Origin: Escherichia coli
Lineage (GTDB): Bacteria; Pseudomonadota; Gammaproteobacteria; Enterobacterales; Enterobacteriaceae
Length of the DNA stretch: 64,000 nucleotides
Reading direction: 5' to 3' (one strand)
Assembly (NCBI RefSeq): GCF_003018255.1
Contig: NZ_CP027440.1
Part shown: positions 1-8,242 of the stretch, in pieces
Numbering within the stretch: position 1 is the stretch's first letter
Layout: every line of letters starts with the position of its first letter
Position numbers and translations under genes: made by a program
Notes under the pieces: generated by a model
What the model was told of the DNA's origin: nothing
Databases searched by the model: none
The model's input: the letters and a program-made list of their open reading frames with translations, nothing else

Positions 1-759
1 CACGCCGGCTTTTTCGGCAAATGCGTGCGTCGCCTGCTGGCAATCCTGAGTGGCGGACATTAATCCAGCCAGTAACTGGTGGGAGTAATCGGCGTGTTTA
101 TTTTCCAGCGCCAGAATCAGTTGCTTAATATGTGCCAGTGCCACCGGACCACATTTTTCCAGCTGCGCTAACTGGTTCGCCATCCAGCTTTCCACCTGTT
201 CTTTTTCTACCACTTCATCAATTAAATTCGCCACCTGGGCTTCCTGCGCCGTCAGGCGTTTACCCAGCATCAGCATCTGGCGACCGACCACCGGGCCAAC
301 CTGATTAAGCACGCGTTCAATGCCCATCCAGCCAGGCACCATGCCGAGCATCACTTCCGGGTTAGAGAATTTCGCGCCGGGGCGAGCGATACGAATATCG
401 CAGCACAAGGCAAGTTCAATACCGCCACCGATGGTATGACCGTTGAGATTCGCAACGGTTAATTGGGGTAAGTTGCGCAGGCGATTAAAAACCTCGTTAC
501 CGCGTTTAATCCATTTTCTGCCCATATCTAATGGCGAATAGGCCGACCACGATTTAATATCGCCGCCCGCACAAAAGAATTTATCGCCGGTTGCCGTTAA
601 TTCGACTAATCGTAATGTGGTGTCGTTTTCAATTTCATTTAAATAATGGTCGAGAGATTCGATCATTTCTTCATTAATAGCATGACATTTATCTTCACGG
701 TTCAATGTCAGGCGGCAAGAAGCCGCCGCTCTGCTGAACAGAACGGGTTGGTCACTCAT
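1..759 (-). CDS. enoyl-CoA hydratase/isomerase (crotonase-fold) family protein; 3' end lies beyond the window edge
   Basis: Open minus-strand frame starting at ATG 757-759 (SD-like aggaa upstream) and running off coordinate 1; my manual translation begins MSDQPVLFSRAAASCRLTLNREDKCHAINEEMI and contains a crotonase-like oxyanion-hole region (HTIGGGIELALCCDIRIA). Not in the ORF track because no stop lies in the window. Confidence 0.65.
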   Translation of the reverse strand, partial: MSDQPVLFSRAAASCRLTLNREDKCHAINEEMIESLDHYLNEIENDTTLRLVELTATGDKFFCAGGDIKSWSAYSPLDMGRKWIKRGNEVFNRLRNLPQLTVANLNGHTIGGGIELALCCDIRIARPGAKFSNPEVMLGMVPGWMGIERVLNQVGPVVGRQMLMLGKRLTAQEAQVANLIDEVVEKEQVESWMANQLAQLEKCGPVALAHIKQLILALENKHADYSHQLLAGLMSATQDCQQATHAFAEKAGV

Positions 760-768
760 GATTATTCC

Positions 769-1611
769 TTAGCAATAATGTGCGATGCGATCGACGCTAA
801 TATCCAGCGTGCTGTTAATATCTTTCTGCCACCAGTACGGTGAGAATATTTCCAGTTCAATAGCGCCATTAAATCCGGCGTTTTCAACCAGCCGACGAAT
901 TGACGGAATATTGATGACACCATCTCCCGGCATTCCACGGTCATTGACCAGATCGGTGGTCGGCACTAACCAGTCGGAAACATGAAACGCGAGGATGCGT
1001 TTTCCGGCACGCAGGATCTGACTGGCGAGATCCGGGTCCCACCAGACATGGTAGACATCTACCGCCACGCCGAGGCCAAATTCGCCATCGGGATCGAGTT
1101 CATCACACCAGTCCAGCGCCTGACGTAACGTGCACAGACAAGAACGATCGGCAGCAGTCATCGGGTGCAGTGGCTCCAGTGCAATTGGCACGCCGACCTC
1201 TTTCGAATGTGGCAGCAACTGGCGAATCCCTTGTTTCACCTGTTCCCGTGCTTCGTACAGATCTTTTGTTCCCATTGGCAGACCGCCAACCACCTGCATG
1301 TAACAGGCGGCATTTAGCACAGCGGCATCGTCCAGCGCCCGGCGGTTATCATCAATCGCCAGCTTGCGCTCCGCCAGCGTCGGTGCGGTGTAGTAGGTGC
1401 TACGGCACAAACCGGAAACGTTTATGTTACTGGCAGCAAGCTGGCGGGCGATTTGCTGGAGATCTTCACCCTGCAACTCCCTGCGCCAGGGGGCAATGGC
1501 GCCAATACCGCGTGCGGCGCAGGCATCAATAATGGCGGGTAGCGGCGTTTTATAGCCCAGTGTCGCGGTATTGATACTGAATAAATCCGGGCGTTGTAAC
1601 AGATCTCTCAT
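769..1611 (-). CDS. sugar phosphate isomerase/epimerase-like protein (xylose-isomerase-like TIM barrel)
   Basis: 280-aa ORF; family call from overall sequence character (my recognition, no search). Start ATG preceded by gagg SD; separated by about 10 bp from the SDR gene upstream and the crotonase gene downstream (operon). Confidence 0.6.
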   Translation of the reverse strand: MRDLLQRPDLFSINTATLGYKTPLPAIIDACAARGIGAIAPWRRELQGEDLQQIARQLAASNINVSGLCRSTYYTAPTLAERKLAIDDNRRALDDAAVLNAACYMQVVGGLPMGTKDLYEAREQVKQGIRQLLPHSKEVGVPIALEPLHPMTAADRSCLCTLRQALDWCDELDPDGEFGLGVAVDVYHVWWDPDLASQILRAGKRILAFHVSDWLVPTTDLVNDRGMPGDGVINIPSIRRLVENAGFNGAIELEIFSPYWWQKDINSTLDISVDRIAHYC

Positions 1612-1620
1612 GATTCAGCC

Positions 1621-2412
1621 TCAGAAGCGCGGCATACTTAAGCCGCCGTCGATGGCGACCGCCTGACCACAGGTGTAAATCAGTTTACCTTCCGCCATCG
1701 CGCGGACAGTGGAAGCAATATCAGCCGGATAACCCCAACGTCCCCACGGCACCAGACCTTTGGCAATCAGTTCGTCGTAATAGGCCGTTGCCGGAATAGT
1801 CATATCGGTTTTGATGAGACCAGGACGCACTTCATATACGCCAATTTGTTCATTACAAAGGCGAGCAGCAAATAGACGAGCAGCGGCAGAGACGGCAGTT
1901 TTGGCAATGGTATATTCGCCGCGATTCATCGCCAGCATGATGGCGTTGATGGAACTGACGAAAATAATCGAGCGGTGCGGCAGTTCTGCTTCCGGTTTCG
2001 GCTGTGCCAGTAAGCGCTTACTGAATGCCTGAGCGAGGAAGAACGGTGCGCGGGTGTTAATGGCAATATTTTGGTCGAAGCTGTCTGGTTCGAGGTCGAG
2101 AAGATCACCGCGTTTTTTCACTGAAATGCCTGCGTTGTTGAGCAGGCAGTCCAGACGTCCCCACTGGTTTTGCGCTGCGTCGAGCATCTCTTCATGCAGG
2201 GAGAGATCGCCCACATCAGCAGGGAAGCAAATCACTTCCACGCCTTCCGCCAGACATTCTTGTTGTGTGGCATGTAATTTTTCTACGCTATCCGCATCCG
2301 GACGATCATTAATCAGCAGATTAAATCCGCCACGCGCAAGCTCCAGCGCACAGCCCTTTCCAATACCACGAGCGGCTCCGGTAATCACGGCAACAGGAAG
2401 AGTGGATTTCAT
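1621..2412 (-). CDS. short-chain dehydrogenase/reductase (SDR) family oxidoreductase
   Basis: 263-aa ORF with N-terminal TGAARGIG cofactor motif and YTIAK catalytic Y-x3-K motif; first gene of a 3-gene minus-strand operon. Confidence 0.8.
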   Translation of the reverse strand: MKSTLPVAVITGAARGIGKGCALELARGGFNLLINDRPDADSVEKLHATQQECLAEGVEVICFPADVGDLSLHEEMLDAAQNQWGRLDCLLNNAGISVKKRGDLLDLEPDSFDQNIAINTRAPFFLAQAFSKRLLAQPKPEAELPHRSIIFVSSINAIMLAMNRGEYTIAKTAVSAAARLFAARLCNEQIGVYEVRPGLIKTDMTIPATAYYDELIAKGLVPWGRWGYPADIASTVRAMAEGKLIYTCGQAVAIDGGLSMPRF

Positions 2413-2624
2413 ACAATAGCTCTCTTTTTTTGAATTTTGTTTCCTTAGTGATGATTAGCTTGCGACTGGAGGGTAAAAAGATCAACCATCTAGTTGGTTG
2501 ATATGCGATGGCGATCACAGGACATTTGATAACCTGATGAAAGTACAAGTTTTTGCCCTTTTTTCTGAAGCTGAAATCAAATCAGGTTATGATAGTCACC
2601 ACGAAGAGGTCGTGGGGAAGCGTT

Positions 2625-3272
2625 ATGTATCTTGATACCAGCAACGTACAGAGCCTGAAAGAAAAGCTGCTGTTATGCGCGGTTAATGAATTTGCCGAAT
2701 ATGGTTACGAAGGGGCCAGAGTCGATAATATCGTCAAGGCCGCGGGGTGCAGTAAACAGACGGTTTATCACCACTTTGGTAATAAAGAAAATTTATTTAT
2801 CGAAGTACTGGAATATACCTGGAACGATATTCGACAAAAAGAAAAGGCCCTTGATTTCTCAGATCTTCCGCCACAGAAAGCCATTGAGAAAATAATCGAT
2901 TTTACATGGGATTATTATATTTCTAATCCCTGGTTTTTAAAAATTGTGCATAGTGAAAATCAAAGTAAGGGTGTGCATTATGCAAAGTCACAGCGTCTTT
3001 TAGAAATTAACCATGCGCACTTGCAGTTAATGGAATCCTTATTGGATGAAGGGAAGAAAAACAATATTTTTAAGCCAGATATCGACCCATTGCAGGTGAA
3101 TATTAATATTGCTGCGCTTGGGGGATATTATTTGATCAACCAGCATACGCTTGGTCTGGTTTATCACATCAGTATGGTTTCACCCCAGGCACTGGAAGCC
3201 AGACGTAAGGTCATCAAAGAGACAATCCTTAGCTGGCTTTTGGTTGACCCTTCATCTACCGCGCGCGAATAA
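2625..3272 (+). CDS. TetR/AcrR family transcriptional regulator
   Basis: ORF track frame 2553..3272; N-terminal HTH typical of TetR ([37 protein letters not shown]). I prefer ATG at 2625 (gggaag SD-like upstream) over the ORF-track start; divergent from the SDR operon. Confidence 0.75.
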
Positions 3273-3894
3273 AACTGCCATCCGGCTGGCGGGTAAACAG
3301 GACCTGTTGATTATTCCCCGTATCAATGGTTAAGCCCGTCACCACGCCGCTGGCGTTCTGGCGGATTTTCACCATCTGCCCGTTTTGCAAATTACTCAGT
3401 GGCTTATCCGCGCCTTCTACCTGCGCCATGGCATAGACATCGGTAGCGGGCAGTCCGTGGTCGCGGAACAGCTGCGCCATCGTTTTACCGGGTTCGACAC
3501 GATAGGAGCGCCATTGATTATCAATTCCGCTATCTGGCTGGAATGGTTGCGTATGGGTGGTTTGCGGCTGCTCTTCTGGCTGGCCTTCCTGTATTGGTTC
3601 TGGAGCGACCGGAGCCACCTGATCAGGATCATTTTGTGGCGTGACTAATTGCGCCCGCAGCTGTTCTTCTGTCGGTGGTTGTGATTGCGACTGAATATCT
3701 AACTGCGCTTCACGCGTCACCACCGGCGCGTTGGGCGTATCATCAGATGGAAGCAGAAATCCGACTACCAATACAATGGCGGCAATAATGATCCCCCGAC
3801 GATGCATCGGCGGCAGCGGGTCCATGAAGCGAAAATTGTCCGGCGCGTGCCAGACTTTCTCCAGGGTTGGTTTTAGTTCAAAGCGCCCGGGCAT
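3256..3894 (-). CDS. ytfB: cell-division protein YtfB (OapA/LysM-like domain)
   Basis: ORF 3256..3930; internal ATG at 3894 gives about 212 aa matching remembered YtfB length; membrane anchor plus Pro/Gln-rich linker plus C-terminal OapA-like domain. Confidence 0.8.
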
Positions 3895-5040: not shown

Positions 5041-6453
5041 ATGGTAGATCAGGTAAAAGTCGTTGCCGATGATCAGGCTCCGGCTGAACAGTCGCTACGG
5101 CGCAATCTCACAAACCGACATATTCAGCTTATTGCCATTGGCGGTGCCATTGGTACAGGGTTGTTTATGGGGTCCGGCAAAACGATTAGCCTTGCCGGGC
5201 CGTCGATCATTTTCGTTTATATGATCATCGGTTTTATGCTCTTTTTCGTGATGCGGGCAATGGGGGAATTGCTGCTTTCGAATCTGGAATACAAATCTTT
5301 TAGTGACTTCGCTTCCGATTTACTCGGGCCGTGGGCAGGATATTTCACCGGCTGGACCTACTGGTTCTGCTGGGTTGTAACCGGTATGGCAGACGTGGTG
5401 GCGATCACGGCTTATGCTCAGTTCTGGTTCCCCGATCTCTCCGACTGGGTCGCCTCGCTGGCGGTGATAGTGCTGCTGCTGACGCTTAACCTCGCCACCG
5501 TGAAAATGTTCGGTGAGATGGAGTTCTGGTTTGCGATGATCAAAATCGTCGCCATTGTGTCGCTGATAGTCGTCGGCCTGGTCATGGTGGCGATGCACTT
5601 TCAGTCACCGACCGGTGTGGAAGCGTCATTCGCGCATTTGTGGAATGATGGCGGCTGGTTCCCGAAAGGTTTAAGTGGCTTCTTTGCCGGATTCCAGATA
5701 GCGGTTTTCGCTTTCGTGGGGATTGAGCTGGTAGGTACAACAGCTGCGGAAACCAAAGATCCAGAGAAATCACTGCCACGCGCGATTAACTCCATTCCGA
5801 TCCGTATCATTATGTTCTACGTCTTCGCGCTGATTGTGATTATGTCCGTGACGCCGTGGAGTTCGGTAGTCCCGGAGAAAAGCCCGTTCGTTGAACTGTT
5901 TGTGTTGGTAGGTTTGCCTGCGGCTGCCAGCGTGATCAACTTTGTGGTGCTGACCTCTGCGGCGTCTTCCGCTAACAGCGGTGTCTTCTCTACCAGCCGT
6001 ATGCTGTTTGGTCTGGCCCAGGAAGGTGTGGCACCGAAAGCGTTCGCTAAACTCTCTAAGCGCGCAGTACCCGCGAAAGGGCTGACCTTCTCTTGTATCT
6101 GTCTGCTCGGCGGCGTGGTGATGTTGTATGTGAATCCCAGCGTGATTGGCGCGTTCACGATGATTACAACCGTTTCCGCGATTCTGTTTATGTTTGTCTG
6201 GACGATTATCCTTTGCTCGTACCTGGTGTATCGCAAACAGCGTCCTCATCTGCATGAGAAGTCGATCTACAAGATGCCACTCGGCAAGCTGATGTGCTGG
6301 GTATGTATGGCGTTCTTTGTGTTTGTTCTGGTGTTGTTGACACTGGAAGATGACACCCGCCAGGCGCTGCTGGTTACCCCGCTGTGGTTTATCGCGCTGG
6401 GGCTGGGCTGGCTGTTTATTGGTAAGAAGCGGGCTGCTGAACTGCGGAAATAA
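5041..6453 (+). CDS. cycA: D-serine/D-alanine/glycine:H+ symporter CycA (APC family)
   Basis: 470-aa polytopic membrane ORF, recognised as CycA. Confidence 0.9.
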   Translation: MVDQVKVVADDQAPAEQSLRRNLTNRHIQLIAIGGAIGTGLFMGSGKTISLAGPSIIFVYMIIGFMLFFVMRAMGELLLSNLEYKSFSDFASDLLGPWAGYFTGWTYWFCWVVTGMADVVAITAYAQFWFPDLSDWVASLAVIVLLLTLNLATVKMFGEMEFWFAMIKIVAIVSLIVVGLVMVAMHFQSPTGVEASFAHLWNDGGWFPKGLSGFFAGFQIAVFAFVGIELVGTTAAETKDPEKSLPRAINSIPIRIIMFYVFALIVIMSVTPWSSVVPEKSPFVELFVLVGLPAAASVINFVVLTSAASSANSGVFSTSRMLFGLAQEGVAPKAFAKLSKRAVPAKGLTFSCICLLGGVVMLYVNPSVIGAFTMITTVSAILFMFVWTIILCSYLVYRKQRPHLHEKSIYKMPLGKLMCWVCMAFFVFVLVLLTLEDDTRQALLVTPLWFIALGLGWLFIGKKRAAELRK

Positions 6454-6465
6454 TCGCATTATCAT

Positions 6466-6494
6466 GCTGGATGGCGCAATGCCATCCAGCTTTT
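6466..6494 (+). terminator. intrinsic terminator after cycA
   Basis: GCTGGATGGC-gcaat-GCCATCCAGC perfect 10-bp stem followed by TTTT. Confidence 0.7.
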
Positions 6495-6497
6495 AGA

Positions 6498-7160
6498 TCA
6501 CTCACCCGCCAGCGCGCGCGGGAATAGTACATTGTTTTCCAGACTGATGTGCTCCATCAGGTCATCAATCAGTTCATTAATGCCGTTATACATCGCTTTC
6601 CAGGTGGTGCAGGCTTCCGGCGGCGGTGTGACGTTATTGGTGGTGTGTTTGATCACTTCCAGCAGTTCGCCCGCTTCATCGTGCTCGCTTTCCATTACGC
6701 TGATTGGCCCCATTGCCTGGCTGCCCATGCCTTGTTTAATCATCGGGAAGAGAATTTGCTCTTCTTTCATCATGTGGCTGGAAAGCTCTTCATGCAGCAT
6801 AGTCAGGTATTTTGTCAGCCCTTTTGGCACACTTGGTTTGTCGGCGTGAACGCGCTCGACTTTAGTCGCTTGCAGGATCAGCTCCGGCAGTTGCTCGCGG
6901 TGGCGATCGTGGTAGCGCACGATGATATGGTCGATGATTTCTGCCAGCGGGGCGCTACGCCAGTCTTTCTCAATCGGTTGTTCAGCAAGCTTTGCCAGTT
7001 CGGCTTCAATGACGTCAACATCCAGTTCTTTACGTGCCGCCGCGCGCGCCAGCGTCTGCTTACCGCCACAGCAGTAATCCATATCATATTTACGAAACAG
7101 AGCCGAAGCGCGAGGAATAGAGAGCGCCAGTTCACCTAAAGGTTGGTCGCGATAAGCCAT
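6498..7160 (-). CDS. ytfE: iron-sulfur cluster repair di-iron protein YtfE (RIC)
   Basis: 220-aa ORF with hemerythrin-like His/Glu motifs; recognised as YtfE. Confidence 0.9.
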
Positions 7161-7186
7161 AGCTGATACCTCATTCTTAATAAGAT

Positions 7187-7209
7187 AAGATGCATTTTAA
7201 ATGCATCTT
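7187..7209 (-). promoter_or_regulatory. NsrR operator (11-1-11 palindrome) in the ytfE promoter
   Basis: AAGATGCATTT-T-AAATGCATCTT, perfect inverted repeat 27-49 bp upstream of the ytfE start codon; matches the NsrR binding motif as I remember it. Confidence 0.8.
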
Positions 7210-7267
7210 TATGGCAAATGCTATAACCCTTACGTAGCAGAGGCTTATTTAACTCACTGCCAGCGTG

Positions 7268-8242
7268 TCAACTTTCTGAGACAGATTCAGTTAAAGGTTT
7301 TTCTGGTTTTGCTCTGACTGCAATGACCACGCCAACCACTAACAGCGCGATACCGCTTAGCGTCATTAGCGGCGGCATTTGCTGGCGTAACAAAAAGGTG
7401 TACAGCAAGCCTGCCAGCGTTTCGAAAACAATCAGCGGCCCGAGAATCACTGTCGGTAATCGCTGGCTGGCGACGTTCCAGCAGAGTGCGCCAACCCATG
7501 AGCAAAGCACGGCTATCGCAACCATCAGACTAATAAACACCAGCGGACGGGGGCCAAAGGGTAGGGAGAAGCCCGGCGTTTGCGTATTCAGCCAGTAACA
7601 GGCGACGAGATAGCCGATGAGAGAAACCGGCAGCGTGACCAGCGCCTGCGCCGTCGCCCACATCATCGGATGTTTGTCGGGATTCTCCCGCAGCCAGCGG
7701 GCGTTGCGCAGGGCATACCATGCCCAGCAGACCACGGAAACTAACGCCAGCACGATGCCAGAGGTATAACGTGCCCAGTCAAAATCGGGGAGTCCGTGGT
7801 TTAACTCAGCAATATTCACACACGCCAGGCCGATGCCAATACAAACCAGTGCCGGGGCGAGTTTTCCCCACGCGAGTTTGCCGTCGCGCTGGCTATAAAG
7901 CAGATTGGCAAAAACGGGAATCACCACCGGCAGGGTGCCAATAATCATCGTGGAAACAGGCGCGCCAGTACGTTGAATGGCACTGGCAAGGCAGAAGTAA
8001 TAGATGAGGTTGCCCATCATGGTGAGCATCAAGGCGGTAAGCCAGTCGCGACGCGCCAACTGACGCAGACGCACGCGTCCCAGCCAGGCAATGGGCAGCG
8101 CAATTAACCCTAACGCCAGATAACGCCCCATCGACTGCAACATCGCCGGGTATTCCGGCACGATCAACGGCCCGACAAAAATAAGCCCCCACATCAACCC
8201 TGCTAACAGGGCGTACAGCACGCCGCTAATCATTACTGGCAT
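7268..8242 (-). CDS. ytfF: DMT-superfamily inner-membrane transporter YtfF
   Basis: 324-aa hydrophobic ORF; true start may be the internal ATG at 8233 (remembered length about 321 aa). Confidence 0.75.
   Translation of the reverse strand: MPVMISGVLYALLAGLMWGLIFVGPLIVPEYPAMLQSMGRYLALGLIALPIAWLGRVRLRQLARRDWLTALMLTMMGNLIYYFCLASAIQRTGAPVSTMIIGTLPVVIPVFANLLYSQRDGKLAWGKLAPALVCIGIGLACVNIAELNHGLPDFDWARYTSGIVLALVSVVCWAWYALRNARWLRENPDKHPMMWATAQALVTLPVSLIGYLVACYWLNTQTPGFSLPFGPRPLVFISLMVAIAVLCSWVGALCWNVASQRLPTVILGPLIVFETLAGLLYTFLLRQQMPPLMTLSGIALLVVGVVIAVRAKPEKPLTESVSES

Follow-up and report, generated by a model that had tools for sequence, protein, structure and literature searches.

The 107-nt intergenic region between ytfF and ytfE contains a 23-nt palindrome, and the question raised by this locus is whether the palindrome is an operator of the repressor NsrR, a target mainly of some other regulator, an RNA hairpin, or an A+T-rich sequence that arose by chance. 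Comparison of its sequence, position, conservation and allelic variation with published data leaves us in little doubt that the 23-mer is the NsrR operator of the ytfE promoter, and that it is an already known and ordinary one. None of the observations speaks against this assignment. Below, the window denotes the whole analyzed stretch of 64 kb, and the coordinates of the features are collected in Table 1.

The regulated gene was identified by homology and by genomic context. Its open reading frame encodes 220 aa and matches NCBIfam NF008221 (iron-sulfur cluster repair protein YtfE) with 417.7 bits at a cutoff of 254, and TIGR03652 with 270 bits. The gene order in the window, cycA / ytfE / ytfF / qorB / ytfH, is that of E. 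coli K-12 MG1655. Of the 5426 complete E. coli genomes, 5416 contain a match to a 1-kb piece around the operator; in all records among the matches listed, the matched part is annotated as ytfE, ytfF and cycA. The 64-kb window holds no nsrR gene; E. coli JNE23-011, the closest complete genome, has one annotated in the arrangement nsrR-rnr, approximately 34 kb upstream of ytfE. The operator can also be used as an anchor: it confirms that the window comes from the Escherichia coli chromosome (segment cycA-ytfE-ytfF-qorB-ytfH) and that ytfE lies on its minus strand.

Table 1. Features of the ytfE locus in the window (offsets in brackets are counted from the ytfE ATG)
Feature	Position	Strand	Basis or remark
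cycA	5041-6453	+	neighbour of ytfE
ytfE (RIC), di-iron iron-sulfur cluster repair protein, regulated gene	6498..7160	-	ORF, NCBIfam matches and annotation
Shine-Dalgarno GAGG of ytfE (putative, by position)	7169..7172 (-12 to -9)	-	invariant in 81/81 sequences
Alternative candidate -10 hexamer TATCTT	7182..7187	-	overlaps the last operator base; inferred
NsrR operator, 23-bp 11-1-11 palindrome	7187..7209	-	exact sequence, identity to published site, matrix, conservation
Promoter-proximal half-site AAATGCATCTT (ytfE strand)	7187..7197	-	contains polymorphic base 7193
Candidate -10 hexamer TAAAAT, 5/6 vs TATAAT	7194..7199	-	operator centre; inferred
Promoter-distal half-site AAGATGCATTT (ytfE strand)	7199..7209	-	fits AANATGCATTT; columns nearly invariant in 81 sequences
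Conserved block TGCTACGTAAGGGTTA, resembles NarL/NarP 7-2-7 site	7224..7239 (-79 to -64)	-	alignment and rule matches
ytfF	7268-8242	-	neighbour of ytfE, read in the ytfE direction

Several other features of the neighborhood were recorded. Between the convergent cycA and ytfE genes, a strong hairpin GCTGGATGGCGCAATGCCATCCAGC followed by TTTT (6466-6490, -20.2 kcal/mol) is probably the cycA terminator and possibly a bidirectional one. At 7165-7185, just after the operator hairpin in the predicted RNA fold, AUCUUAUUA pairs with the Shine-Dalgarno region of ytfE (GAGG), a motif that from its position would be the ribosome-binding site of the gene. The spacer RNA between ytfF and ytfE, folded as a 103-nt stretch, has a z-score of -2.83, and the predicted pairing of AUCUUAUUA may be due to chance. 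At the other end of the region (window 1-3300), K-12 has ytfA and ytfB before fklB, and the closest genome has an extra cluster upstream of ytfB that encodes an enoyl-CoA hydratase, a sugar-phosphate isomerase, a 3-ketoacyl-ACP reductase and a TetR regulator; this cluster resembles an insertion that varies between strains and adjoins the ytfE region.

The operator reads AAGATGCATTTTAAATGCATCTT on the plus strand and AAGATGCATTTAAAATGCATCTT on the ytfE strand, and forms a perfect 11-1-11 palindrome of 23 nt. A search of the window with the AAGATGCATTTTAAATGCATCTT pattern returned one match per strand, and the reverse-strand match was off at the central base alone; thus, each 11-nt arm is the exact reverse complement of the other, with one unpaired base between them, which is A, not T, on the ytfE strand. 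The operator spans positions -49 to -27 from the ytfE ATG, leaving 26 nt between its end and the start codon. These observations bear out the preliminary description, which had placed a perfect 11-1-11 palindrome directly upstream of ytfE; its assignment of the gene and of the orientation agrees with the NF008221 match, the minus-strand reading frame and the K-12 gene order. When up to three mismatches were allowed, the same pattern had no matches in 100 dinucleotide-preserving shuffles of the 64-kb window.

The site was compared with the published descriptions of the NsrR motif. Its core fits gATGyAT-N5-ATrCATc, the consensus of Rodionov et al. 2005 (PMC1274295), which was reported upstream of dnrN (ytfE) and conserved in enterobacteria. 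Both arms are AAGATGCATTT with a spacer of 1 nt, and fit AANATGCATTT, the half-site consensus that PMC8151001 quotes from Partridge et al. 2009. The accepted geometry of NsrR sites is an 11-1-11 inverted repeat (PMC5320621), and Table 4 of the same paper (Mehta et al. 2015) contains 27 predicted 11-1-11 sites of E. coli CFT073. The first entry of this table is ytfE, with the sequence AAGATGCATTTAAAATGCATCTT, the best PatSer ln P (-25.13) and a ChIP-seq peak, and the site in the window, read on the ytfE strand, is identical to it letter for letter.

From the other 26 CFT073 sites of this table, with ytfE left out, we constructed a symmetrised log-odds matrix. With this leave-one-out matrix, the operator scores 31.35 of a possible 31.54 bits; among 50 shuffled windows, the highest score was 18.98 bits (mean 13.3), 12 bits lower. 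The matrix scan revealed no other strong NsrR site in the 64-kb window; the next best matches reach 17.1 bits (51696-51718) and 15.7 bits (52989-53011), no more than shuffled windows attain, and both fall in a low-GC stretch. Such a near-maximal score makes the operator usable as a positive control for motif scans. The preliminary description had called for comparison with the curated motif, a substantially different motif being what would speak against it; the operator was found to be essentially the motif consensus. Its view of the site as a known element, not a novel one, is borne out by the identical CFT073 site, and its term "textbook NsrR site" stands as to identity but needs refinement, as the perfect palindrome is the CFT073-type allele and K-12 MG1655 has one mismatch.

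The low-GC stretch mentioned above (48000-54000), in which the weak secondary matrix matches fall, has a GC content of 0.41-0.42, compared with about 0.52 elsewhere. It corresponds to the yjgL / argF / rraB / yjgM / yjgN region and is 100% identical to E. coli JNE23-011, where yjgL is annotated as a frameshifted pseudogene.

To assess conservation, one genome per species was scanned with the YtfE protein, which yielded 80 loci in Escherichia, Enterobacter, Citrobacter, Klebsiella, Kosakonia, Kluyvera, Lelliottia, Raoultella, Buttiauxella and other genera. The 23-mer is present with zero to four mismatches in 80/80 other Enterobacteriaceae species sampled, at a distance of 24-27 nt, mostly 26, from the ATG, and it is a perfect palindrome in 12 of these 80. 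In the alignment of the 130-nt upstream regions, the commonest base of a column has a mean frequency of 0.95 in the operator, 0.66 in the upstream intergenic part and 0.85 between the operator and the ATG. Variation within the operator is concentrated at positions 4, 7, 14, 17, 20 and 21 (81 sequences). The r and y of the consensus of Rodionov et al. (PMC1274295) correspond to position 17 and to its mirror image, position 7, respectively, and the commonest variable base of the operator is such a y/r position. Conservation as high as that of the operator extends just beyond it: T at -27, the last operator base, and A at -26 and T at -25 outside it show no variation in 81/81 sequences.

These data bear on the possibility that the palindrome is a chance product of intergenic sequence and has no function. 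Intergenic DNA is A+T-rich, and short palindromes are common in such DNA; however, the pattern is absent from the shuffles, the matrix score exceeds that of the best shuffle by 12 bits, and both the sequence and the spacing are kept in 80/80 other species while the flanking DNA diverges. In addition, a 30-mer spanning the operator occurs once per genome in all 887 genomes where it was found. The conservation and the matrix score refute a chance origin, to which we assign practically no probability.

An inverted repeat downstream of ytfF, which is transcribed in the same direction, might also form a functional RNA hairpin, such as an intrinsic terminator for ytfF. A terminator scan flagged the palindrome on the ytfE strand, with 10 pairs, a 3-nt loop and five T in the next eight bases, and the operator hairpin is present in the minimum-energy fold of the intergenic RNA, where the perfect allele folds at -9.7 kcal/mol. 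Palindromic operators, however, inevitably resemble hairpins, and the details do not fit a terminator, i.e. a stable G+C-rich stem followed directly by a U-tract: the stem has only three G-C pairs, and the tail AUCUUAUU is no U-tract. Moreover, the majority E. coli allele and 38/81 species have a C-A mismatch in the middle of the stem, which reduces the stability to -3.0 kcal/mol. Evidence for a structured RNA, in the form of pair-preserving covariation or a match to a curated family, was likewise not found for the palindrome. The two arms pair in 90.5% of cells in the alignment, against 90.7% with shuffled partners (80 distinct sequences), and the arm covariation score of 0.022 shows no excess over the shuffled mean of 0.026. 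An Rfam search of 6300-7500 returned no relevant family and one chance match (E = 0.9) inside the ytfE coding sequence. Thus, we rejected the terminator or RNA hairpin on the basis of stem composition, the missing U-tract, the mismatch in the majority allele and the lack of covariation, and consider it highly improbable. Independent variation of the arms points to a site that binds a protein dimer rather than to a hairpin.

The protein in question is expected to be NsrR, an NO-sensitive [Fe-S] repressor of ytfE, hmp, hcp and other genes (PMC5320621). Expression of ytfE is increased 69.6-fold in CFT073 under nitrate respiration (PMC5320621), 544-fold in a Salmonella nsrR mutant (PMC2884951) and >100-fold under nitrosative stress in Yersinia, where a delta-nsrR mutant expresses it constitutively at a high level (PMC6759291); the ytfE promoter has been employed as an NO reporter in EHEC (PMC7336997). 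As ytfE is an established member of the NsrR regulon, the operator sits in a promoter region of the NO-stress regulon.

The site could alternatively be mainly the target of another regulator, either an IscR-like Rrf2 protein or a nitrate/nitrite response regulator, with NsrR in a secondary role. In Yersinia delta-nsrR, ytfE is slightly further induced by nitrogen stress (PMC6759291), and in the window a separate conserved NarL/NarP-like block lies 33.5 bp upstream of the operator, centre to centre. This block, however, is a distinct element outside the palindrome, and the 23-mer itself is nearly maximum-scoring for the NsrR matrix. In CFT073, NsrR occupies this very sequence in vivo (PMC5320621), and in relatives the absence of nsrR is by itself sufficient for derepression of ytfE by hundreds of fold (PMC2884951, PMC6759291). 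We therefore see very little room for another regulator as the main ligand, and retain NsrR. For the strain of the window itself, occupancy of the operator by NsrR is most likely, as predicted from sequence identity with the CFT073 site.

The upstream block was characterized further. In most species, it has a form like TGCCTCT-AA-AGGGGTA or CACCCCG-AA-AGGGGTA, with a nearly invariant right heptamer and a loose left half, and in most Enterobacteriaceae species it is fixed at 32.5 bp from the operator, centre to centre. With the 7-2-7 rule TACYYMT-NN-AKRRGTA for NarL/NarP sites, 67 of 82 sequences agree at 11-13 of the 14 positions, and of 1640 trials with shuffled upstream regions, 12 gave agreement at 12 or more of the 14. 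In Escherichia, the copy is degenerate (10/14) and lies 1 bp further from the operator. Rodionov et al. 2005 (PMC1274295) placed the enterobacterial dnrN (ytfE) among the genes with NarQ/NarP control. If TAAAAT were the -10 element, the block would be centred at about -44.5. A centre near -44.5 is typical for NarL/NarP activation. The block is possibly a co-regulator site, separate from the NsrR operator, and we offer it as a lead. As a second conserved block with NarL/NarP-like heptamers, at a fixed upstream distance in most Enterobacteriaceae, it is a minor piece of new information.

The location of the ytfE core promoter was approached by several methods. A promoter scan detected no canonical sigma-70 pair of -35 and -10 elements near the operator, and a relaxed enumeration in the same area gave weak -35 candidates only; a full-text literature search retrieved no ytfE start-site or NarL data. 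Two hexamers are candidate -10 elements. The hexamer TAAAAT at the operator centre would place the transcription start near -27 from the ATG, and the operator would then extend from about -22 to +1 of the transcript. The alternative hexamer adjoining the operator is TATCTT in Escherichia and TATATT in most other species, with A at -24 in 78/81 sequences; it may be a -10 element or an extended NsrR contact.

The following mechanism is proposed, in which the steps of dimer binding, release by NO and repair by YtfE are taken from published work on NsrR of E. coli, Salmonella, Yersinia and Streptomyces: (i) NsrR, a winged-helix repressor of the Rrf2 family with an iron-sulfur cluster, would bind the operator as a dimer, each subunit reading one 11-bp arm (AAGATGCATTT) of the 23-bp palindrome, (ii) the bound repressor would block RNA polymerase, as the operator covers or abuts every plausible -10 element, (iii) nitric oxide would nitrosylate the cluster, NsrR would leave the DNA and ytfE would be strongly induced, and (iv) the produced YtfE/RIC would repair iron-sulfur clusters damaged by NO. 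Since NsrR would lie on the core promoter with either candidate -10 element, occlusion of RNA polymerase at the core promoter is the most likely mode of ytfE repression, judged by position.

The operator is polymorphic within E. coli. At window position 7193, which is operator position 17, the base on the ytfE strand is G here and A in K-12, and it decides between a perfect and an imperfect palindrome: the K-12 MG1655 site, AAGATGCATTTAAAATACATCTT, has ATACAT instead of ATGCAT in one arm. Alleles were counted by exact 30-mers spanning the operator in 5426 complete E. coli genomes. The K-12 allele was found in 3540 of them (65%) and the perfect allele, always single-copy, in 887 (16%); the remaining genomes carry other operator variants, as exemplified by strain AHM8C160RI. 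Across species, position 17 is G in 43 and A in 38 of the 81 sequences, and the two states alternate among the genera of Enterobacteriaceae.

The closest complete genome, JNE23-011, carries A at this position and thus the K-12 allele. Over 1 kb around the site, it is 99.9% identical to the window, position 7193 being the sole difference. We considered the window as a clonal variant of JNE23-011 that differs only at the operator, and rejected this since the two sequences are 99.6% identical over 61.7 kb, with 232 differing positions.

The matrix score is 31.40 bits for the perfect allele and 30.76 bits for the K-12 allele, a difference of about 0.6 bit. Because the difference in score is so small and the position is an r in the consensus, the G/A polymorphism is most likely neutral. 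It is unlikely, in our estimate, that the two states represent recurrent, selected tuning of the strength of ytfE repression instead of neutral drift; if they did, a perfect operator would be expected to keep ytfE under tighter repression, or to raise the amount of NO required for induction, in the lineages that carry it. Two descriptive points are minor new information: a minority of E. coli genomes carry the perfect palindrome, and the single variable base falls at a y/r position of the consensus. The ytfE operator has been described as an NsrR target from 2005-2006 onwards, and in vivo mapping located it in K-12 and CFT073. Its value as a discovery is small, because it has been described for so long. 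The NsrR site of the K-12 ytfE promoter reportedly goes back to Bodenmiller and Spiro in 2006 and Partridge et al. in 2009.

Comparison of the operator with known systems revealed relatives at several distances. The ytfE site of CFT073 (PMC5320621) agrees in all 23 nt, in the downstream gene and in its distance from the start codon; among the 11-1-11 sites in the CFT073 genome it has the best score, and a ChIP-seq peak covers it. The host strain alone differs, as the window is closest to JNE23-011. The ytfE site of K-12 shares the locus, the position and the 11-1-11 geometry, and is identical in 22/23 bases, whereas it has A and not G at operator position 17, which makes its palindrome imperfect. 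The E. coli hcp, hmp, ygbA and yeaR operators belong to the same motif family and to the same NO-stress regulon; they are, however, imperfect, with 20-27 bits compared to about 31.4 for the ytfE operator under the same matrix.

The most distant of the compared systems is [4Fe-4S]-NsrR of S. coelicolor on the hmpA1 operator, for which a crystal structure is available (PMC9338935). There, a dimer of the same Rrf2 family likewise binds a 23-bp pseudo-palindrome, covering an operator of about the same length, and NO abolishes the binding in a stepwise manner (PMC9338935). The sequence of the hmpA1 operator, AACACGAATATCATCTACCAATT, is different from that of ytfE, and the S. coelicolor protein binds the E. 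coli hmpA operator very weakly (PMC9338935). Thus, the recognition code of NsrR is not interchangeable between the two systems.
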